Assembly (NCBI RefSeq): GCF_006345805.1
Contig: NC_043005.1
Coordinates: 86,800,001 to 86,864,000, forward strand
From: Octopus sinensis
Taxonomy: Eukaryota
Length of the DNA stretch: 64,000 nt
Direction: 5' to 3'
Within the stretch, counting starts at the first letter, position 1, and the number at the start of each line of letters is the position of its first letter. Under the pieces are notes generated by a model. It searched no databases. It was not told the origin of the DNA and saw nothing but the letters and a program-made list of their open reading frames with translations. Shown in pieces: positions 16,079 through 48,384 of the stretch. A program made the position numbers and the translations under genes.

Positions 16079-16326
16079 TAAATCTCTTTCGGTTGGTTTC
16101 AAAGCGAAGAACTCTGAAATGTCAGTTTCGACCCCCTCATTTCGGGCATTTAACGACAATATGAGTCTTCGAAGACAGTTGCTCACACAAATACCAACAT
16201 AAAATTATGGAATTATGGAGGTTAGTTAGATCCGAACGAGGGGGAAAATAGTGTACGCTGTTAGAAATATTTTCTTTGAAAAGAGAAACAATAGAAGCGA
16301 GAGAGAGAGAGAAACGAGTCATCCAG

Positions 16327-23231: not shown

Positions 23232-23274
23232 ACCTTAACTGGTTTTCGAATTCTATTTTATTCTCATCAGAGGC
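23232..23274 (-). ncRNA. Minimal type I hammerhead motif
   Basis: Minus strand cct-CTGATGA-gaat-aaaataga-attc-GAAA-accag-TTA-agg. Stems I and II pair. Confidence 0.7.
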
Positions 23275-30432: not shown

Positions 30433-32705
30433 TTAGAGTATGTTTAGTTGTGGTCTGTATTTTTGAATAAGATTACTTTCCTTATTTATTCGTGTTTGGT
30501 CTGTGGTGTTGTCCGAGCATTGGTATAGTGGGAAGACTAAGAATTTGGGGGACTTATTGTGTGCACAAAGGTCTAAGTGTCCACTTAGTGTATCTGTCTT
30601 GTGGAGGGGTCCCTCAGTTGTTGTCGGTGAACTGTCATTCTGTCTCTGAGGGTAAGGCTCGTTTGCCCTATGTAATCTTCGTGGCATCCTTCACACCTTA
30701 TGACGTAGAGTAAATTTTTTGATGCGCACGTGAAATTATTTTTTATGATGAATGTGTGTCCCGAGTGGAACTTGTACGATGATCCCTCAATGAGGTGGAT
30801 GCAGGTCTTGCAGTTGGGGCGACCACATTTTTTGATGGTGGGCGGTGGGTTTGTGTTGTGTAATTTTGCGTTGGTGAGGAGGTTTTTTAGGGATTTAGGT
30901 TGTCTCTTACTTTTTATTATTTTATGAGCTGCCAGTATTTTTTTCAGGCGTGGGTCTTGATTTAGTTGTGGAATGTTGTTGTATATAATAGTGTAAGCTT
31001 CTGCATTCCTTGGGTTGTGTGTTGAGAGATAAGGGAGGCTATTGACTGTACTGTGGATGTGTTTGGGTTTTCGAAGGTCTTGAATGTTGATTGATTTGGC
31101 CCGTTCTATTCCGTTGTCTACTAGTGATGCCGGGTAATGTCTTTCGAGAAGAATTGCCCTTAGTTACCGGAGTCTTCTATTTCGTGTTGTGTCATTTGAG
31201 ACAATAGTGCAGATTCTTCTCGCTAGGTTGAAGGGGATATTTGTCTTTGTGTGTTTTGGGTGATTGGAGGTGAATAGAAGGTATTGTTTAGAGTCAGTGG
31301 GTTTGTAATGGATGTCAGTTTCAATGTTGACGCCTTTTTCAATGATTAGGATGTCAAGAAAAGGGAGTTGGTCCTGACTATATTCCATTGTGAATTGAAT
31401 GTTGTTATTTACACTGTTGATAAGGTTTTTGAAGTCTATAAGTTGGTCGAGTGTGTGGGACCGTAGGATGAGGCAATCATCTAAGTAGCGTTTCCAGTTC
31501 TCCAACAGGTATTTGTGGAAAGACTGGCCGTACTTATATTTGGATTTTTCATAGATATGTGATTCCAGGTAGGCCATCACCAGGTTTGCATAGGTAGGTG
31601 CAACTTTCGTACCCATTGCAGTACCTGAGACCTGTCTGTAAGTGTTGTTGTGGAAATACATGAAGTTGTTTTGCAGAATAAATTTGAGGCCCTCAATTAT
31701 GAATTCTTTTTTAATTCTTTCCGGGATCTCATTGGGATATTTATCCAGCCAGAATTTAATGGCTTCCATCCAAATTCATGTGGGATTGTGGTGTAAAGAT
31801 TAATAACATCAAAAGAAACGATTAAGGTGTCTTTATCGGCATGTTTGGGGAGATGGTTTAATAGGTCCAGGTCATCTCTTACAATACTTGGAATGTGTTT
31901 CAGTATTGGCTTTAAGATGATATCTATAAAGTTGCTAAGTCTGTGTGTTTCACAACTTGGGCCTGCCACTATTGGTCTCAGTTTGAGATCAGTGGGATGT
32001 GGTATAGTGATGCAGGTTGAAGTGGACTTTTTGCAAGCTTCTGTGATAATTTGACTCTTGTGTATTTTTGGAAGCCCATAGAGTGTGCTGGTTTTGCAAT
32101 TAAATTTAGTAATGTAGTCGCATTCCTTTGCTGTCAAGTCATTCCGGTGTTGGTAAATGAGTGCCTTCAGATTGGTCATTGTTTTGGATTGCTGGTAGTC
32201 GACTACTCTTTCGTAGTATGTGGTATCCTCTAAAAGGAGAGATACAGAGTTTTTATATTGCTCAGTATTCATAACAACGACCGTACTACCCTTATCAGCT
32301 TCCTTTATTGTGACGTCATGATTGTCTCGTAGCGTATGGATGATTTCCCATTCTCTTTTACTGGTGTTGGGTTTGAGTTTAGGTTGTGGGAGTTCACCAT
32401 AAGGGAAGTTGGAGATGTAATCGCAAAATTTGTCTAAGGTTTTGTTTTTGCCTTTTATGGGATTATAGTTGCTTTTGTTACAGACCATTGATTCGTCGAT
32501 ATTATTAGTTTTCCTGTCAAAAAATTCCTCTGTGAGGCGTAATTTTCTGCAAAAGTGCGAGATGTCATCCTGTATTTCCCTCAGGTTAGGGTATTGCGGA
32601 GTTGGGGTGAATTTTAGTCCTCTTGAAAGGATTTTTATTTGTGGTGTCGACAGGTTTAGGTTAGAGATTCACTATTTTTGGTTTTTCGGGGTTGGTATCT
32701 ACCAT
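30433..32705 (-). pseudogene. Penelope-type reverse transcriptase plus GIY-YIG endonuclease, frameshifted
   Basis: N-terminal IVNL/NLNLSTPQIKILSRGLKFTPTP, then TIKEADKGSTVVVM, LYGLPKIHK, LRPIVAG, SFDVINLYTTIPH, GTAMGTKVAPTYANL, WKRYLDD, LPFLDILI, IHYKPTD. Linker CGRPNCKTC. Endonuclease FTCASKNLLYVIRCEGCHEDYIGQT..RMTVHRQQ. Broken into at least four frames. Confidence 0.95.
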
Positions 32706-33723: not shown

Positions 33724-34300
33724 AATTTGGGTACAGGACGTCACAAAACATGTGCAACAGAAATTACGAAGTACGTATACATGGGATTTGAACTATTTTT
33801 CGAACAACGAAAGACACAAATAGAAAGCAAGACAAACAACATAAAAAAACGACCCTTCATCAGTTATTAGCTGTTTTACTACTCTCGTATTTCGAGCATT
33901 TAACAACAATATACGCTTTCGATAAAACAGTTGCTCCCGTAAAGCAAATTAAATCAAATTTGGGATTTTGCGAAGGATCAAAATTGGTAACACAAACAAA
34001 CAGGAAGGGTTGTTAAGCCAAATCGAGGTTGTGATGGTGAACGCGTAAATCAAGCTTAGATAGGAGACAGACAAGAAGACGCCTTCCTTCTTCCAGCTAC
34101 AACGGAGAGAAAGAAAGTAACACAATTTTGGAGAAAAATAAAGACGGCTAATGATCACGTGGGAACCACATGAGGAAGGGAGGAGGAGTGAGGGAGAGAT
34201 AGTGACAGAGTAATAAGATAGAATATATGGAGAAGGGGAGGTAAAATATTAAGAGAGAGAAAGAGAAAAGCAAAAGATTAAAAATATCGTATAGAGTGCA
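33720..34300 (-). mobile_element. Probable Penelope-type terminal fragment
   Basis: Begins at (TA)n. Purine-rich tract as in the 48385 and 53020 elements, and a decayed GAAAGC...GCTCGAAAT motif on the minus strand. Confidence 0.4.
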
Positions 34301-37719: not shown

Positions 37720-38100
37720 TAGGAACCTCCATAGTCGTCCTATCAAAAGCAGTTGATTGTTCAGTTTCTGACTGGATTTCTAAGCATGACCAACTGAGAA
37801 TTTGACTATTGTCCAATCGTCGTGTCTCCGTCTACTCCCAGGTCAGTTGACAGTTGGCTCGGCCTAAAGAATTCCATTTGCGTTTCCTTGCAACATACTA
37901 AACACATGACCGTAATACTGAAGCTGTGACCGTTGAATATGAAGAATTACTGACACAAATTCGAGAGAATCCTTTATCTCCAAACTACGCTTTTCGGCGA
38001 GTAAATTTACTCCAGAGAACCTCCCTTCGAACACCATTTTAGCCTCTTGTATTCGCACAACATTCCTCAGAATATATCATACCCGTATGACACACATACT
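37720..38100 (-). mobile_element. RTE-clade LINE 3' relic
   Basis: RIQEAKMVF..SGVNLLAEKRSLEIKDSL..ILHIQRSQLQYYGHVFSM matches the RTE RIERSQLRWFGHV.RM region. Confidence 0.8.
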
Positions 38101-38104
38101 GTAG

Positions 38105-38425
38105 AGGTGTACGGTTTTGTAGTGAGCTGCTTTAGGCTCATGATCGTAACGTTGTGCGTTCGATTCCAAGTGGCGTGTGTTATCCTTGAGTAGGACAATT
38201 TATTTCACGCTGCTCTAGTCGACACAGCTGGCAAAAATGTGTGTTATCTTTAGTACAAAGGGCCAGCTTGTCGCATTCTGTGTCACACAGAATCTCCTTG
38301 TAGACTACGTTAAAGGCACGCGTGTCTGTGGAATGCTCAGCCGCTTCCACGTTATGTTCATGTGCAGAATCATCCGTTGATCGGACCAGCTGGTACAATC
38401 GTCAGCGTTCGACAAAGTGCCATAA
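38105..38425 (+). mobile_element. Diverged SINE of the 18738 family
   Basis: GGCTCATGATCGTAA.GTTGTG.GTTCGATTCC..TCCTTGAG..CAGCTGGCAAAAATG..CGTGTCTGTGGAATGCTCAGCC. Confidence 0.82.
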
Positions 38426-38986
38426 AGAAACTATTAATTGGTAAATCGAATATTGTTTAATTTGACCATGAAATGCGAATGTGGATAAAATTACCATGGT
38501 ATAATTATTCGGAGGTAATGTTAAATTAGACATCTATATGATATCATAAACATGAAATTCTAAGTTAAATCACTGTTATCGGAGGTATGTTATAGAGATT
38601 CCTTAATCGCTTGTTTAAAATAGACAAAAGTGTGGGGTACGCAAAATTATTAATTCAATCTCTAATGATTCGTTATAATATATTTACAAAAAATATCCAT
38701 GTAATTAATAAGATTATTCTAATGTTATATTATTGCCTGCAGTGATGATTTATCGGTTTTATTAACAGCTGTAGTAATAATGGCATTAATAATTGGATGA
38801 AAAGTAGTTATCGTCTTGTTGAGTATTGCAATAAATTGTATTTAAGTTAATTTTAATAAAATTGTAAACGTCAAAAAAGGAGAAAAATATGGTATGAAAA
38901 GGATGAAAGATAACGTATGTTGCGTGTTGCGTGAGGCGTGAGGTAACAAATTTCTATATTTTCTAACGATAAAAAACGGCCAGTAA

Positions 38987-39030
<44 letters not shown>

Positions 39031-39242
39031 TCATATATTTATTTATTTATCCACCAGTCTGTCTGTCTGTCTGTCCGTCTATCTATCTATCTAGCCATCT
39101 GTCTATCTATCCACCTGTCTCTATATCTATTTCTCTATCTATAAACACATACACATACACACGTATACAAATACATATTCATAGATAGGTTGATAGCTAG
39201 ATAGATAGACAGTCAGGCAGGCAGACAGACAGACAGATAGAC

Positions 39243-39299
<57 letters not shown>

Positions 39300-39359
39300 T
39301 ACATAAGTAAGAATATATATATATATATCCATACATATATGCGTGCATGTATTTAATTA

Positions 39360-39402
<43 letters not shown>

Positions 39403-40064
39403 GTATATATGCATGTATGTATATATGCATGTATGCAGTGTGCATGTGAGAGTGTGTGTGTGTGTGCATACTCGAGGGAGAGCGGTAGAGGGAAAAATGA
39501 AAGATGCATAACAGAAGCATTACTGAGATATCTACATACATCGATACCTCTTAAAAAACGTGATGAGAAAGAAGAAAACAAACAAGAGAACGGCAGAGTA
39601 CCGTTTGCTTTTGGTAGATTTGTACGTGTGTTGTGCAGACATTTCTAAGTGAAACGTGCCGATTTCCAATGGAGCAGATCAATAAGTTACATCATTGATA
39701 GAGAGCCGAATTATTCACTTTGTTCCGAAAGTGTTTTTCCCTGAGATCAATCAATGTTTGCATCGACTGTGTACAGCTTTATTATCTAAAACTATACATT
39801 GATGGCTGCATGTGGCTGCTAAATGTATTTCATAAGATGCACGCCGAAGGTCGATATGCCTCTTTCAATAAGCAATGCTTTTCGCATTTAGAATTTTTTT
39901 TCTGTTACATATCATCTCTCTTACAATGTCATTCGTCTCTCTTTCTATTTATTTGTCTGTCTGTCTCTATCTCTCTCACATACTATCTCTATTTCTCTCT
40001 CAGTACACACATACATGCATATTCATACCCACCCACACATACATATGCACACACACACACACAT

Positions 40065-40128
<64 letters not shown>

Positions 40129-40345
40129 ATATATATATATATATCTACATGTAAGTATACATATATATTTATGCATCTGCGTAAGATAATTAGATACATA
40201 TATGTGCGTTTGTATATACATACGTATGTGTATATGTGTATATATATATATGTGTGTATGTATGCGTGTGTGTGTGTGTATATATATAGATACATGCACA
40301 CATAAATATATACGTATGTATACACACAATTAAACGCATACATGC

Positions 40346-40384
<39 letters not shown>

Positions 40385-41279
40385 CGTACATACATACTTC
40401 TATGTATGTGTGTGAATACAAACACACAAAAACACAGACACACACACATGCACATACAGACGCAAATATATGTATATAAAATCATGCCTGCAGTCATTCC
40501 TCGCACAGTGATACACAGATACACACATTTATTTTATAACCACTGACATATATATATATATATTCACTAAAATATTTCGCATCACTTTCATTTACATATA
40601 TATATATACGCTCTATAAACTACACAGACACACATATACACACACGTACGCGCATACAATCAGAAACCCGCTCCTTTATCTCATCGTACGTCTATAACCA
40701 TTCATCTTCGTTATTACCCTCTTTTATTCTTCTCTAAATACGCAAACTCACAAATGCTAAATAAACACTGACTTACTGCCAGCCTTCTGTTACGTTGATG
40801 CCCGTCTTGATTTATGGCTTTTAGGGGAACATTCTTAATGTACAGCTTCAGTTAAACACGAGAATATGAAATTATAAGGTCGAAGGTACTCGATTTAGCT
40901 CAACGTGTATTTATATATTCTAACTTCCCTTCGTAGTCCGTTGTTAATTCTGCATATCTTCAAATAATGAAAACGTCAACGTGTGAGCAGACAGTGAGGT
41001 ATTCCATTTGGAAAGGTTTTACGTAACTTTTCCTTGAAATGGTTTTCGTCTACTCAGAGGAATGTGGCCAACGCCTGGCTAGTTTTCCAGTTAGGTTTTA
41101 ATTCTTTTGCTTCCATATTTTTCTTGAAATAACCGGCACTCCGTCTGTTACGACGACATGTGTTCCAGTTTTTCTTATCAACGGAACGGCCTGCTTTTGA
41201 AATTAACGAGAAACAGGTTGAACATTCCACAGACGCACGTACCCTTCACAGAGTTTTCAGGGAGATTTAGCAAGTGCAC

Positions 41280-41510
41280 CATCGGATGGATTCTTATCCA
41301 TAGATAATTTCCTGCACTCAGAATGTTCGAAGGAATTCTTCACCTCCGAAGACAAGAACTGGTATCAGAATAGAACCAAAGAATTAGTAGAGAGGTGGCC
41401 TCAGACAGTACAGCACAATGGTCTCTACTGTCAATACTACGAATTTAGTGGAAGAATAAAGTCAATAAGTTAACAAATTATTGCAAAACCTTTGACTCAA
41501 CACACTATTA
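41280..41510 (+). mobile_element. mariner transposase C-terminal relic with possible right TIR remnant
   Basis: EFFTSEDKNWYQNRTKELVERWPQTVQHNGLY matches the mariner C-terminus. Confidence 0.75.
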
Positions 41511-41824
41511 TAATTTTTAAATAATTCTGGGTCTCTTGATCCGAGGAGGTTTTCTCTGTGTGTGTAATACCACCAGGTAACGGAAACAGTTTTATAGAAA
41601 ACCCGGATTTCGCAGTCCTCCACAGATTATTTTGTCTCTCAGCAGCAGTGAATGCAAAAACTAATATACGTGCTACATCTCACCATATTCACTTCCCTAT
41701 CGGCTAAGTATGATGAGCGTAAAGTTGTTTAATCGGATTGTTACCTAACATTCCATTGAATTCTTTACGCAATACTGATTGGTAAGATTAGCCGTGATGG
41801 ATATTTAATACTATACATTTCGGA

Positions 41825-41883
<59 letters not shown>

Positions 41884-42029
41884 TATGTGTGTGTATATAT
41901 GGATGTATGTGTGTGCACGTGTCTGCATGTATATGGATGTATATATAGTTATGTCATAAACAGAAGTAGAAAGCATTTTCCTTTTTCTTTCCTGTCTCAG
42001 TTTGCAAAACATCTAAGACCTTAAAGTAG

Positions 42030-43490
42030 TTAACCACTGATAGACCGGGGGATGGTTAGGCATCTTGGAAAGACAAGATGACTGTTCGAAAAGACGAGCG
42101 GACAATAGGAAAGACTATCGACACCAGGAAAAAGTGGCGGAGGCTGTGTACTTATAATCCTCGCCTCTGTAACATGTTTTAACATACACCAATGAGAATG
42201 ACAGATTAACCGAGAGAAGGAGAGTCGAGAACCAATCAACCCAGTTAACACGGAAATGACCTTGGGCATGAAAACAGATCTTCCTTCGAAAAGCGAACGA
42301 AGTGCAAACAACTTTGGGTGCAAGCTGTGCTGTAGGACCTTTTTAACTGAAAGAGGCTTGAAGATACATCAGGAAAAGTGTTGTAAGAATAGGACAGAGC
42401 AGTGTGGATCAACTGATCGTAAAACACGTGGTAAATCATCCCTGGGCTCAAATCACAGCGGATCGATAGATGCTACAGCAAAAACCTCTTCCCGACAAGA
42501 AATTGCAGGTTATGAAACGGGTGAATCACATAGTACTCGGAGGAAACCGAGGGTTCTGTTGCCTGCTGCTAATGAGAAAGGAAGATATAAAGAGTTTGAG
42601 AAAAAGATGTGTCAAGCTTTTTATAAGATGAGAGGATCTACAGTGGAGAAACTGGGGAAGTATACGATAATAGAAAGGAATTATTTGGAGTGAAAGAGAG
42701 TATCCGATTTGCGAAAGAAAAGTGTGGACCAAATGGGAGGATCAGGAAAATGAAACAGTTGAGGAGGGAAAAGAACAGCCTAAGAAAACGATGAAAATAT
42801 GTTGCGGAAGACGGAAAACCTGGTCTCGCGCCGCTGTACGACGATTTAAAAGGAAATGTCGTTATGTGCAACGACATATCCGCCGATGTGAACGGCGAAA
42901 GGAAAGGAAAAGGACTCGGGGACAGTTTCTGAAGAAGTAGTTCACTGAACCGAAAAGAGGCCCTTTGTCATGCACAAAAGAAGAATTGGATGCTCATATC
43001 AAAAAAACCTACAGCGATCCACACAGTAACCAGCCACTGCAACCTATAAATGGGCAAAAGCATCTCTTCGAATCTGATATCGAATTTCAAATTGGGAACA
43101 TCAGGGAGAAAGAGGTGAATGATTTCGTAAGAGAGGCTAGAGCAAAGAGTGTCCCAGGAGGTGATGGTGTCTCGTATAAAGTATACAAATATTGCAATCG
43201 TCTCCGAAAGAAGCTATTTGCCCTACTCCAAAGCTGTCACACGAAGAAATTCTAGGAGTGGTGTAAGGCAGAAGGCATATACTTTGTTTTTGTAACTGGG
43301 ATGAGAAAGAATAGTAATCTAGCAAGCCGGGCCTCATGTTAGTGATGGTACCGGTGCTCATTGATGCCGTCGAGTAGTAGCCCCCGAAACGGCGTGCATT
43401 CACTCCTGACGACTCCATACGCTTGCTGGCTTCCGGTACGTGGAGCTTGCAACTGGTAGCACTTGCATGTGCAGCTTGTTTGCAAAATGC
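42030..43490 (+). mobile_element. Hero-like (restriction-like endonuclease class) non-LTR retrotransposon, internally deleted
   Basis: N-terminal zinc finger CKLCCRTFLTERGLKIHQEKC, then KPRVLLPAANEK, CTKEELDAHIKKTYSD, VREARAKSVPGGDGVSYKVYKYC and WCKAEGIY. Coding breaks off at the RT start (about 43285) and is followed by a GC-rich putative 3' UTR ending at (TA)n. Confidence 0.8.
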
Positions 43491-43497
43491 ATATATA

Positions 43498-43533
<36 letters not shown>

Positions 43534-43538
<5 letters not shown>

Positions 43539-43904
43539 AAAAAAGCAACAAGAATGGATTAAAATCTCGGTACGATCGTTTCGTACGAGGACATCTTTAA
43601 TAAGCTACAAAAAATGCAGTGAATACAGATGGCTCGTACTCGTCAGCCGAAAAAACATCAGATAATTTTTTTCGGCTGACGAGTACGAGCCATCTGTATT
43701 CACTGCATTTTTTGTAGCTTATTAAAGATGTCCTCGTACGAAACGATCGTACCGAGATTTTAATCCATTCTTGTTGCTTTTTTCCTATTTGTAATCACCC
43801 CACTTGTCGTATGGTTAACACCATATAGATTTCCGGTGCATCCTAGTTAAGGACCATATTCATGTGAATTCTTTAGAATTCACTAGAATCTCAATTACTT
43901 AACC

Positions 43905-43905
<1 letters not shown>
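43534..43905. mobile_element. Young fold-back Penelope-type terminal-repeat insertion in (TA)n
   Basis: 43534-43655 is the exact reverse complement of 43667-43788. The direct arm extends about 117 bp further, and (TA)n lies on both sides. Confidence 0.9.
43671..43756 (+). ncRNA. Intact minimal type I hammerhead ribozyme (mirror copy on the minus strand at about 43566-43651)
   Basis: ttcgg-CTGACGA-GTACGAG...CTCGTAC-GAAAC-gatc-GTA-ccgag: 5-bp stem I, 7-bp stem II, palindromic ACGATCGT. Confidence 0.88.
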
Positions 43906-43974
<69 letters not shown>

Positions 43975-44449
43975 GTTGTAATTATTAAATTATAAATAGA
44001 GTATCTAAGAGATAACATCATGCTTGAAAGAGCAGTCAAAAACCTGGCTTTAAAAATCCCATCAAATATTTAATACAGCACAAGGCAAAGAGACAAATAG
44101 ATAAATAAACTAGTAAAAATTGGATAATTCCAGATCCAGCATTTCTGCACAAACCTTGCAGTTACCGTGGAGAAAAAAATATGTATAAAGCTATAAGCTG
44201 TATTTAGTTCGTTCAGGGTTGCCTCGCTTGGGTACACTTCATCGACAAGAATAAATAAACTCGAAACATCGAGATTTTCGAAAGTGAGCGACACAGAACG
44301 AACTGGGTGTGTTTCTACACCTTTTTACCATAAGAGAGATTTTTTTCTGCACGGTAACTGCAGTTTGCAGTTTATTTGCCTGTAGCAGTTGAAATATGTG
44401 ACAAACATATTTCAACAAACCTAAATATATATACATATATACGAACAAG

Positions 44450-44800
44450 TGGAGGTGCGGTCGTAGGATTATGGTTTCGATTCCCAGACCAGGTGTTGTG
44501 AGTGTTTATTGAGCGAAAACAGCTAAAGCCCCGCGAAGCACCGGCAGGGGGTGCAGGCGAACCCTGCTATATTCTTTGACCACAACTTTCTCTCACTCTT
44601 TCTACCCGTTGCTGTTGTATCTGTATTTCAAAGGACCAACCTTGTCACACTCTGTGGCACGCTGAATCTCCCCGATAACTACGTTAAGGGTACAGATGTC
44701 TGTGGAGTGCTCATTCACTTGCACGTGAATTTCACGAGCAGGCTGTTCTGTTGATCAGAGCAACTGGAACCCTCGTCGTTGTAACCGACGGAGCGCCACG
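44450..44800 (+). mobile_element. tRNA-derived SINE (21914 type)
   Basis: GGTTTCGATTCCCAGACC B box. Same body and tail as 21914-22280. Confidence 0.85.
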
Positions 44801-44814
44801 AATACAGCGCACTA

Positions 44815-44894
<80 letters not shown>

Positions 44895-45646
44895 ATACAT
44901 ACACTCACTCACACATACATATACTCACAATACACCAATCCACCCCTTTACATATATGCAGAGAAAACAGATGATATGGACGAAAAAGAAATAGAATAAA
45001 CATAAAAAAAACAACAGCAAAAACTGGACAACATTATACCTATATCTGATTCTAGATTCTCCACAAATTGCATTCTTGACATTTAGGCTATCTTACATTC
45101 TGTGTGTATGATGAATAGACGAATGCATGTTTGAATATATATATGGATATTTGTGCGCATTCATTATGTATATCTTATATGCATATATGTGTTTGAGTAG
45201 CGTTTAAATACATTTACATACAAGTACACATACGTTTAACGAATCAGACGCTCATTCACATATGTACATCTGCATACAAAGAGAAAAACAGAACTTGAAT
45301 GAATGAAAAAGAAAGTACGCTTAGAAGAGTGAATGAAAGCATGGTGTGGAAGGTCAAATAAAACAAGGTCAGCAAATGCTACGCGGTGATACAGACAACA
45401 GATAATAACCTAAATCTGACGCATCAGTTTAAAGACTTTAGGTTTTACCGTTGAATCTAAAGTTTCTATCACAGATAGCATGTCATTCTCATGCCGTCAC
45501 CCAATAACTTGAATAACTTGGATCTTACTTCGCTCCAGATGAAAAGTTTTAAATAATATTTTTGTTCTTGTTGTTGTTTTATTTAATGCCTGTGCTTATT
45601 AAAATGTTATAACATAGGTTTCTGCTTCCTGACATTCATTCACGAT

Positions 45647-45692
<46 letters not shown>

Positions 45693-45695
45693 TAT

Positions 45696-45741
<46 letters not shown>

Positions 45742-45964
45742 CAACCCCGTTCACTCACGCCCTTTCTGCCTCTTCTCCGTTTCTTTCTGTCGCTATTTTC
45801 GTTTTGTGCACGGCTGCACATGCATAAAATGACAATGACATATAAATATGCAGAACTCCTCTGTATAAATGTGTGTATGTGGTGTGTTTGTGTGTGTGGT
45901 GTGTGTGGGAAAAGGATATAGGTATTTGTATTGGGACCCCTTTGCATCGAAAACCGGTGATTGT

Positions 45965-46009
45965 CGCACGCTGAGGACGGGTAAATACTCAGAAACCCGA
46001 GTCCGTGCG
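45965..46009 (+). ncRNA. Minimal type I hammerhead ribozyme motif
   Basis: cgcacg-CTGAGGA-cgggt-aaat-actca-GAAAC-ccga-GTC-cgtgcg, with a perfect 6-bp stem I. Confidence 0.82.
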
Positions 46010-46260
46010 TATCACGTCAGGTTGAAGGTGGGAAGGATGGCTTCCCTTTGCAAATACCGATGGGGCACAGAAAGTGTGTCTATAGCCAGCTGGAGAAGAT
46101 GTTCTCCTGCGGCTACAAGCTACTGTAGCATCCACCCTTAGTGATTAGCCACATTTAGATGGCAAATATACTTCACATTGTCGTATGGTTACTGTTTATA
46201 CCTCATTCAGAGATTTATTATTACTATACATTTATATACATATATATATATACATATAAA

Positions 46261-46590
46261 GACCCCCTTCGGTCATGAATGACCATGGGATTGCACCTAG
46301 AAAGTTACCCTCCGAGGCACAAGTCCGGGCAAGGTTATTTATGGAAGACCAGCAGTCGCCCATGCATACCAGCCTCCCCTCTCCACGTCACCAGTGTTAT
46401 CCAAGGGAAAGGCAAAGGTCGATACAGCTTGGCACCAGTGACGTCGCAACTCATTTCTACAGATGAGTGAACTGGAGCAACGTGAAATAAAGTGCCTTGC
46501 TCGAGAACACAACACGCAGCCCGGTCCGGGATTCGAGCTCACAACCTCACGATCGTAAGCTCGACGCTCTAACCACTGAGCCATGCGCCT
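46261..46590 (-). mobile_element. tRNA-derived SINE (head and centre of the 18738 type, different tail)
   Basis: Minus strand GGCGCATGGCTCAGTGGTTAGAGCG..TCGAATCCCGG..GAGCAAGGCACTTTATTTCACGTTGCTCCAG, then an unrelated tail ending CATGACCGAAGGGGGTC. Confidence 0.88.
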
Positions 46591-46613
46591 TACATATACA
46601 CATACATATATGC

Positions 46614-46666
<53 letters not shown>

Positions 46667-46699
46667 ATATATATACTTACATATACACACATACATATA

Positions 46700-46731
<32 letters not shown>

Positions 46732-47206
46732 CTTACATATACACACACGTACACAAAACACACACACACAAACACACACACACACAGGTAAAGATGGAAA
46801 TTTCCATTTCTAATCTCCTACTATCAACACCTACGATGTGAGATTTCTTCCTTGAAGACAGAGGCACCTCTCATCCGACGATGGCATGAAATAACAATCG
46901 TTATTTGGAGTCACCAAGCCCCCAGAAACAGCTGTTGTAACACTTTTTTCAACCCCTTTAATAATTGATATAATTTCTATTCTGTGTAATACGGACCTTT
47001 TTGTATCTAAATATATAAACATTTTTTTCATTTCTTGTATTAAATATATTTTAAATGTTTTGTATATCGGCTCGCCTAACTTGTTTATCCTTACATTTAC
47101 TCCTCTACCTGCTCAAGTTTAAACCTCCTGAGCACTACTATGTGTATTCTATACGGGGAGTATTTAATTCCCATCTATGAACTATATACATATATTTATA
47201 TATATA

Positions 47207-47293
47207 GAGAGAGAGAGAGACAGAAAGAGAGAGAGAGAGACAGAAAGAGAGAGAGAGAGACAGAAAGAGAGAGAGAGAGACAGAAAGAGAGAG

Positions 47294-47325
<32 letters not shown>
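47207..47325. repeat. (GA)n tract with a 20-bp higher-order unit
   Basis: CAGAAAGAGAGAGAGAGAGA repeated 5 times. Confidence 0.92.
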
Positions 47326-47516
47326 GAATAAATTTACATAGAACATAAGACCACAGCATACTATAGAGAGGATACATAGTTTTTCTCCAATTCGACGGCT
47401 GTTTCTGGAAGGTTAGAATTACATAATAATAGAAATGTTCATAATTAGTAGATGGTTTGTGGAAAAGGCATGGATATGAAACCAGAAATTAGTCACGTTG
47501 AGATATATTTACACAC

Positions 47517-47564
<48 letters not shown>

Positions 47565-47599
47565 AGACACACTCAAGAAGACTGAAATGGCAAATCATA

Positions 47600-47850
47600 T
47601 TATCGAGCATCAATCCATATAGCTAACATATTCTGGACATGCACTGTGCCACGAACCATTGCCTAAGACCATCCTGAGAGGAAAGAGGGTTGAACATAGG
47701 CAAATGGTGACATCAAAGATGTTTGTGGACAGAGGACATCAAAGAGTCCATTGGAAACAAGGGTTTGGCTGATTGTATGAAGCAGCAGAGCGCAGAGCAG
47801 CTGGAGAGTTGTGTCACGCCGACCCCTGGACACATAAAGGGCACGAAACG
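47600..47850 (+). mobile_element. RTE-clade LINE 3' relic
   Basis: LTYSGHALCHEPLPKTILRGKR..WTEDIKESIG matches the L.YFGH..R...L.K.IL.G..W.D.IK pattern. Confidence 0.65.
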
Positions 47851-48384
47851 GATTTCTGATTATATATTAGTGGTACCAAAAGAAACAGAACGACCTCTTA
47901 ATTTAGTGATACACCTCAGAAATTAAGGAGTATCCCCACTTTTTCTGATATGGCATATTGTCATATGGACATACTAATAGCTATATTGACATGATTCTAC
48001 CTAAAATGTCCCAACGTTGCAACTAGAAAATGGTTAAGTCATAAAACCTGGAAGGTAAAGAGTACGTATACCGAATATCAATAAATGGATTCATCAATTT
48101 ATTGTTTACCTGTATTTTTTTTTTTACCTGTTTCAGTTATTAAAGTGTGGACAGGAAAGGGAGACACCGCTTTTGAGAAATTGTAGACGAATCCATCGAC
48201 GTCAATACTTATTTCTTTTTAAGCCTGTTACTTATTCTATCGGCTCTTTTCTCTGAACTGCTTACTTGCGGGGACGTAACAACACCAACACCTGTTTTCA
48301 AGCAATGGTAGTGGACAAAAACAGACATACGAACACACACAGGTGTATGTATGTATGTATGTATGCATATGCATATATATGATC

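Follow-up and report, generated by a model that had tools for sequence, protein, structure and literature searches.

A candidate type SGC-like hammerhead of split topology behind the ORF of Hero-like retrotransposons

Introduction

Hammerhead ribozymes of types I, II and III share one circular order of their conserved parts (CUGANGA, GAAA, cleavage site). The order cleavage site-GAAA-CUGANGA was described as type SGC by Eckert et al. 2023 (PMC10085705). The cited passages of that paper report in vitro cleavage of five type SGC RNAs, with all four stems validated by mutation in one of them, and 407 + 176 sequences from soil-type metatranscriptome RNA, none of which was found in the genome of a known organism. 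They also assume that CUGANGA is inseparable from its stem II strand, which leads to six possible orders. In a search of open-access papers and preprints, the term 'type-SGC' was found in the 2023 paper only, and no publication was found that joins hammerhead, Hero, retrotransposon and ribozyme.

Among retroelements, Penelope-like elements have been reported to carry hammerheads in their pseudo-LTRs (Cervera and de la Pena 2014, PMC4209133), and for these the cited part of that paper proposes cleavage, circularisation and more-than-unit reverse transcription. These ribozymes are of type I, often minimal and dimer-dependent. Naiad Penelope-like elements were reported without hammerheads in a screen that, according to the section cited, used type I-style descriptors (bioRxiv 2021.04.23.441226). 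R2, an RLE non-LTR retrotransposon, carries a self-cleaving ribozyme of the HDV-like class at its 5' end (PMC6765202, in the part cited). It frees the element from an rRNA co-transcript.

Here we analyse a motif from Octopus sinensis, in a stretch of 64,000 nucleotides (the window, whose numbering is used throughout). A sequence-only reading had proposed it as a hammerhead of which no description was known. Its strand order had in fact been published as type SGC (PMC10085705, in the part cited). The split topology and the retrotransposon setting appear to make it a new variant of the non-circular class.

Results

The host element

The motif belongs to an element at 42000-43487, surrounded by microsatellite-rich, eukaryotic DNA. 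Its parts ahead of the motif are as follows.

42000..42016, + strand: stump of the element's own 3' tail ahead of its 5' end (terminal redundancy), with GTTTGCAAAA at 42000 and again at 43478
42061..42120, + strand: in the 5' UTR, a tandem of three hairpins whose loops are of GAAAGA type, with GAC behind each
42205..43342, + strand: broken ORF of an RLE non-LTR retrotransposon, comprising an N-terminal C2H2 zinc finger region, the start of the RT, a big internal deletion and a short remnant

Nineteen proteins matched the window ORF at 45-66% identity, 12 of them with RVT_1; the sole named close proteins are from Aplysia californica. By tblastn, the full-length relative P0005 aligns to 42205-42615 (42% identity) and 42932-43285 (57%). 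The remnant at 43295-43342 would be the C-terminus of the ORF, judged by resemblance only. Full-length relatives carry RVT_1, weak zf-RVT matches and a PD...E...K motif in one ORF, in keeping with the RLE make-up of an N-terminal zinc finger, RT, CCHC finger and restriction-like endonuclease in a single frame, and the window copy keeps only the front part of this ORF. We take the PD...E...K motif to be a restriction-like endonuclease signature, and the window element presumably falls in the clade Hero. A five-clade scheme is given in the cited part of PMC4640811.

The element ends in GTTTGCAAAACATCT, and the same 15-17 tail letters precede its 5' end at 42000. A target-site duplication was considered for GTTTGCAAAA and was ruled out by the letters of the loose ends behind 43487, so that the repeat is a terminal redundancy. 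These loose ends start CATC in 4/4 sequencing runs and CATCTAA in 3/4 (38-49 contigs each), and CATC are also the letters that follow at 42010.

Several further features were seen in and beside such elements. CATCT recurs by the tail end or the tail-head junction (3' end of the window family; L009 at ~73-77, L004 at ~1364, L013 at ~2650, L014 at ~1445) and could mark the start of reverse transcription. In the 5' UTR of the window element (42061-42120), L004 (1435-1495), L005 (88-130), L009 (84-160) and L014 (1500-1545) there are arrays of 2-4 short hairpins, which have loops of GAAAGA type and in most cases GAC behind them and may be protein-binding or translation signals. Right behind the element lies a large nested inverted repeat of foldback/MITE-like look (window 43498-43788, arms ~43538-43660 and 43663-43788).

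The core in the window copy

The motif lies ~30 nt past the apparent stop of the broken ORF. Its parts, all on the + strand, are listed here under the architecture that is set out below.

43319..43331, +: strand Y, which lies upstream and pairs with what follows CUGANGA (helix IV); CTAGCAAGC pairs GCTTGCTGG at 43421-29 over 9 bp, and a G run pairs 43413-15
43332..43346, +: hairpin V, flanked by strand Y and the 5' strand of helix II; CCTCA...TGA in the window copy
43347..43352, +: strand Z, helix II 5' strand with G10.1, decayed; 2/5 pairs left in the window copy
43354..43359, +: P0 5' strand (P0 is the helix that links stem I with stem II); pairs 43394-99
43366..43376, +: block S, made up of a helix III strand, the GUC triplet and a helix I strand; predicted cut after 43371
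43377..43393, +: block G, made up of a 3-nt linker, the helix II 3' strand ending in C11.1, GAAA and a helix III strand
43394..43412, +: P0 3' strand, helix I strand and CUGANGA core
43413..43429, +: strand X, after A9, pairs strand Y (helix IV)
43430..43487, +: remaining 3' tail of the element, then an (AT)n microsatellite

A string check placed ATGCCGTCGAGT at 43364, CGAAACGGCGT at 43385 and ACTCCTGACGA at 43402, all as the sequence-only reading had given them, along with GGTGCT at 43353, AGCCCC at 43379, CTCCAT at 43413 and GTGGAG at 43440. The core strands at 43364-43412 thus run cleavage site, GAAA, CUGANGA from 5' to 3'. The earlier statements that this order fits none of types I, II and III, and that type I-III descriptors would miss the motif, held up: the circular order of those types is not found here, and none of the 128 Rfam matches up to E 10 in window 38000-48000 is a hammerhead. 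The core (CUGANGA, GAAA, U-H triplet) is whole. Both helix III, of 6 bp, and helix I, of 4 bp, stand in register with GUC, GAAA and CUGACGA, again as first read.

A two-helix descriptor matched twice in the 64 kb window, at the 43364 region and on the minus strand at 33910, and had no match in any of 20/20 dinucleotide shuffles of the window. When the descriptor was set to the helix lengths of the window copy, 50/50 dinucleotide shuffles were without a match. A canonical helix II was looked for in the window copy and is absent. Fold prediction gave no stable nested fold (z = +0.94), by a method that cannot represent a multiply pseudoknotted RNA.

A second motif beside a Penelope-like ORF

The minus-strand match has the same architecture with an AUA triplet.

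33851..33979, - strand: second motif, ~170 nt upstream of a Penelope-like ORF; predicted cut after 33910

The ORF has an RT (31164-32668) and a GIY-YIG region (30585-31163), in matches that fall below the Pfam cut-offs. This motif can also fold as a canonical SGC. The motif may be part of the Penelope-like element, and its presence suggests a ribozyme common to retroelement classes. Relatives of the Penelope-like RT were sought in viral contigs, and none of 13 candidates was confirmed. Elsewhere on the minus strand of the window, at ~16130-16185, lies a partial relative of the motif that lacks CUGANGA and shows two compensatory changes in helix III, and positions 23270 and 14860 may hold common type I minimal hammerhead cores (CUGAUGA, GAAA and a helix II of 4-5 bp).

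Spread among related elements

Metagenome contigs were scanned with an alignment of ten related proteins, yielding a sample of at least 51 loci. A strict descriptor, run on both strands, found the motif in 9/51 listed loci, all 9 in sense orientation, compared with 2 matches in 10 shuffles of the pooled 156 kb. A relaxed descriptor, run on the sense strand, found it in 12/51 listed loci, representing 10 families, in each case behind the ORF and 64-1635 nt downstream of its end. The core order, which the sequence-only reading had proposed to check in relatives, is conserved in these loci, with compensatory changes in helices I and III. The motif-bearing elements encode proteins ~30-57% identical to P0005. 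CUGANGA, GAAA and U-H are whole in 12 of the 13 sequences compared (the exception, L031, has GAAT), and the H of the cleavage triplet is never G in the 13.

Some relatives gave no match. Eight of the 20 listed loci with an ORF end and at least 250 nt beyond it had no motif match; three of the eight (L032, L035, L038) form the most distant branch of a quick RT tree, which omits loci with fewer than 200 RT residues (e.g. L042) and includes no named reference. Four more of the eight (L009, L020, L022, L024) may end too early for the motif, judged by the distances in related loci, and L030 had no match in 1311 nt behind its ORF. L021 carries the front half of the motif up to the contig end. Searches for relatives of the RT confirmed none of 20 candidates in viral contigs and none of 45 in prokaryote genomes. 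When viral contigs were scanned for the core pattern, 0/76 matches had helices I and III.

Two side observations concern the ORFs. In L042 (1917-2531) the frame does not stop behind the endonuclease and adds a domain of the ubiquitin C-terminal hydrolase type (PF00443, E 5e-12), and after 2394 L030 has an extra frame resembling this extension.

A probable split helix II

The sequence-only reading held that a normal helix II is absent. That is correct for the window copy, where the pairing has decayed. Across the related families helix II appears to be present, with its G10.1 strand upstream of the cleavage site in 10/10. The strand ahead of GAAA pairs an upstream strand that starts with G and is followed immediately by the P0 strand, which pairs just ahead of stem I. 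What follows CUGANGA pairs with a strand that lies farther upstream, the gap being filled by a hairpin whose linkers measure 0-1 nt. Pairing between the post-CUGANGA and pre-GAAA strands is possible in only 2/13 sequences, with a single pair in 1/13 and none in 10/13; the two exceptions, in which a canonical SGC helix II could form as well (4 bp, given one inserted base), are L013 and the Penelope-side motif.

In a joint test of the upstream arrangement, a sequence's own upstream region scored above all 11-12 foreign upstream regions and above 100/100 shuffles in 12/13 cases, using a descriptor written after these sequences had been seen. The sole failure was the window copy. With positions chosen by that descriptor and rows anchored on the core, 188/198 cells pair in helices I, II, III and IV across 11 independent sequences (10 families and the Penelope-side motif, after omission of L008, L027 and the window copy as family duplicates). 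The first helix II pair, G10.1-C11.1, is G-C in 10/11 of them, and all four Watson-Crick pair types occur at several helix positions.

A structure-blind MAFFT alignment of 10 rows, several of them out of register, gave 72% paired cells in helices I-III and a covariation of 0.54; 0/500 shuffles reached as high and all slid controls were lower. Helix II alone reached 60% pairing in this alignment. Tested singly, with GAAA misassigned in two rows (L027, L033), helix II gave a shuffle p under 0.05 in only 2/13 sequences; such single-helix tests are weak because matches of 5-6 bp are common.

P0 is 6-11 bp long and lies 0-2 nt from the helix II strand in 12/13, and the distance from H17 to G12 is 14-17 nt in 11/13. 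L013 and L042 have a short or interrupted helix IV. In L027 and L033 the hairpin is reduced to a 5-nt linker; their I-to-II linker (L027 4361-4400, L033 2174-2212) has ~27 nt instead of 2-5. This family is a natural variant for structure tests.

These data make us confident that the motif is a selected hammerhead fold, and, with somewhat less assurance, that its chain is opened between A9 and G10.1. The geometry would be that of type SGC opened at A9/G10.1 and closed as a four-way junction by helix X:Y and the hairpin. This topology appears to lie beyond the six permutations held to be possible. The hammerhead 9/10.1 step is reported to tolerate an extra nucleotide in the cited parts of PMC10085705 and PMC4209133. 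The earlier suggestion of a pseudoknotted or else a trans or dimeric hammerhead stands in its first part; all helices can form in one strand, so that no dimer is needed.

Majority letters in the window family

Contigs of 4 sequencing runs from three organisms were aligned to 43255-43495 at 80% likeness and majority letters were taken by depth, after the upstream-helix idea had been set down. No core position has an alternative letter listed at 8% or more in the 4 runs. At 43375 the majority is A (99%), with T at 43402 (97-98%), where the window copy carries a compensatory T and A. Further majority letters are 43376 G, 43381 G (the latter over 99%), 43410 T, 43414 C (the latter 90-98%) and 43358 G (89-99%), all at or above 89%, and 43395 C at 34-65% of depth. 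They give helix I GAGAG/CTCTC with a 3-nt linker, GGCCCC ahead of GAAA, CCCC after CUGAUGA, and P0 as GTGCGC/GCGCAT.

The upstream part of the motif is thinly covered in the 4 runs; 43349 T>G has 93-100% of depth, from just 1-5 contigs per run. L031 and a loose-end consensus from run X3 (6 contigs, agreement 0.78) agree in reading CCTCA-6 nt-TGAGG for hairpin V and GGGGCC for strand Z. Both show a G run, the CCTCA hairpin and another G run, which are partners for the C-rich strands, and the helix II 5' strand of the window family rests on L031 and this one consensus. For this strand the one after the hairpin was chosen, because it fits the other families; a register at 43328-34 is a less likely alternative.

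Since the majority letters restore other pairings, helix II has decayed in the window copy, and the proposed substitutes are not what is conserved. The sequence-only reading had offered two substitutes. GGTGCT/AGCCCC gives way to family majorities of GGTGCG and AGGCCC, and 43354-59 pairs 43394-99 instead. CTCCAT/GTGGAG is weakened by a majority of C at both 43414 and 43441. Both substitutes were rejected.

Tandem and terminally redundant copies

Contigs of other copies span the predicted cut site on both sides, and therefore the reverse-transcribed template was whole there. The cut had been thought to define the 3' end of the RNA. It probably does not, as the element runs ~120 nt on and the contigs span the site. 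Two single-contig deletions that join ~43336-45 to 43413-15 fit skipping at the junction and are too few to count.

A tail-to-head junction or terminal redundancy was seen in the window, L004, L007/L008, L014, L027 and L033; circular contigs can arise in assembly through short redundancy, and these are no proof of full tandems. L009 starts with a tail stump that bears CTGAAGA. This stump and the tail-head copies fit cleavage plus re-joining into circles. Alignments of tails against heads from different loci were mostly non-significant (15 pairs, best 1/300 shuffles, uncorrected).

Discussion

The motif shares with type SGC (HRIMA-1 and variants) the S, G, C order, the full core, G10.1-C11.1, the short stem I-to-II linker (typically 3 nt) and a P0-equivalent helix ahead of stem I; the I-II joining helix and 3-nt linker are reported for the tested SGC ribozymes in the cited part of PMC10085705. 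In the window family P0 abuts stem III without a spacer, as in a few of the published SGC sequences shown there. Unlike type SGC, the present motif has a stem II strand upstream of the cleavage site and two extra helices that close the gap. CUGANGA followed within 0-1 nt by its stem II strand, which marks type SGC, is possible in 2/13. The strict descriptor given in the cited part of PMC10085705 has no match in the 51 listed loci or the window, and the relaxed one matches the Penelope-side motif only. The published SGC sequences are metatranscriptome RNA, whereas the present motifs lie in DNA, in retrotransposons.

Like the Penelope hammerheads, the motif is housed by a retroelement of tandem or partial-tandem structure, in its terminal repeat region; unlike them it is non-circularly permuted, complete as a monomer and found in RLE non-LTR elements. 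With R2 it would have in common a self-cleaving ribozyme in an RLE non-LTR retrotransposon, of another class and at the other end. The pistol-like pseudoknot hammerhead (Zhan et al. 2024, PMC11300833) resembles it in that a distant-strand pseudoknot, stacked with a helix linked to stem I, replaces most of helix II, and differs in that, in the passages cited, A9 and G10.1 follow each other in one strand and blocks C and G are contiguous. The present arrangement is not described in the cited parts of PMC13725137, PMC7650587, PMC4640811, PMC13580325, bioRxiv 2021.04.23.441226, bioRxiv 2026.07.22.740005, PMC6765202 or PMC11300833.

We regard it as probable, rather than assured, that Hero-like RLE retrotransposons carry behind the ORF an SGC-like hammerhead of split topology, which may serve cleavage and the making of circles. 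The RNA would run, 5' to 3', through Y, the hairpin, the helix II strand that bears G10.1, P0, helix III strand-NUH-helix I strand, the linker, helix II strand-C11.1-GAAA-helix III strand, P0', helix I strand-CUGANGA and X. Going by hammerhead chemistry and the tested SGC ribozymes, there is a strong likelihood that intact copies self-cleave after NUH, and the intact core would place the cut after 43371; the decayed window copy itself is likely to cleave poorly or not at all. RNA transcribed across tandem or terminally redundant copies would be cut once per unit, the ends of the unit-length RNA would pair via helices II, III, IV and P0 and be re-joined to a circle, and reverse transcription starting at the tail end would pass unit length and leave tail stumps and head-to-tail tandems. 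Whether cut units, circles and more-than-unit reverse transcription operate here, as proposed for Penelope elements, seems to us an even call. Cleavage products of this motif would stay paired via four helices of ~20-30 bp in all, compared with one helix in types I and III. That the products would stay paired, the template was whole and tail stumps occur leads us to favour the circle model.

The main rival of the circle model is 5'-end processing without circles, which we think unlikely. The ribozyme would be active and would only make the 5' end of the next tandem unit, leaving the 3'-most copy uncut in the reverse-transcription complex, in the manner of the 5' HDV-like ribozyme of R2, and might perhaps also aid cap-independent translation. 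Tandem contigs do have ~300-1500 nt between the motif and the ORF that comes after it, the Penelope-side motif likewise precedes an ORF, and the cited parts of PMC6765202 and PMC13725137 supply precedents in R2 and in ribozyme-aided translation. However, new copies would then start at or after the cut, without the 5' half of the upstream ribozyme, so that the arrangement would not renew itself, and a half motif starting at the cut site was seen in no locus (few 5' ends are among the loci).

It is less probable still that the motif is a non-cleaving 3' UTR fold, bound by the element's protein to pick its template, with the core as relic or scaffold. The contigs that span the site agree with this reading, and R2 is reported to bind a pseudoknotted UTR RNA (PMC12222951, in the part cited). 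Yet the core is whole in 12/13 across RT proteins as distant as ~30% identity, and, with H never G, its pattern is that expected for catalysis.

An ordinary type SGC, with helix II between the post-CUGANGA and pre-GAAA strands and the upstream pairings incidental, is very improbable; the two sequences that can form it and the relaxed-descriptor match of the Penelope-side motif are outweighed by the lack of that pairing in 10/13 (and a single pair in one more), by the failure of the strict descriptor, and by the success of the upstream arrangement in the joint test. A chance match in a decayed repeat, which would account for the missing stable nested fold and intact helix II of the window copy, is refuted by conservation in 10 families, and the descriptor, pairing, covariation and majority-letter results also speak against it.

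Non-circularly permuted hammerheads were previously seen only in environmental sequence of unknown hosts and were held to six orders; the present motifs would be genome-encoded examples in eukaryotic mobile elements, with a topology outside that scheme. They would add a hammerhead to R2-like retrotransposons, whose described ribozymes are 5' HDV-like (PMC6765202, cited part). At their position behind the ORF, cutting should on the face of it ruin the template, which offers a direct test of circular RNA use, and the motif may explain tandem, terminally redundant insertions. With the new descriptor, elements reported without hammerheads, such as Naiad, can be searched again, and a ribozyme whose products stay paired could be of use in making circular RNA. 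At its widest, the proposal is speculative: that an RLE clade and some Penelope-like elements move via ribozyme-made circular RNA, by a seventh hammerhead topology with re-joining ends, in descent shared with viroid-like SGC ribozymes. If true, shared descent with SGC hammerheads would link LINE-type elements and viroid-like agents.
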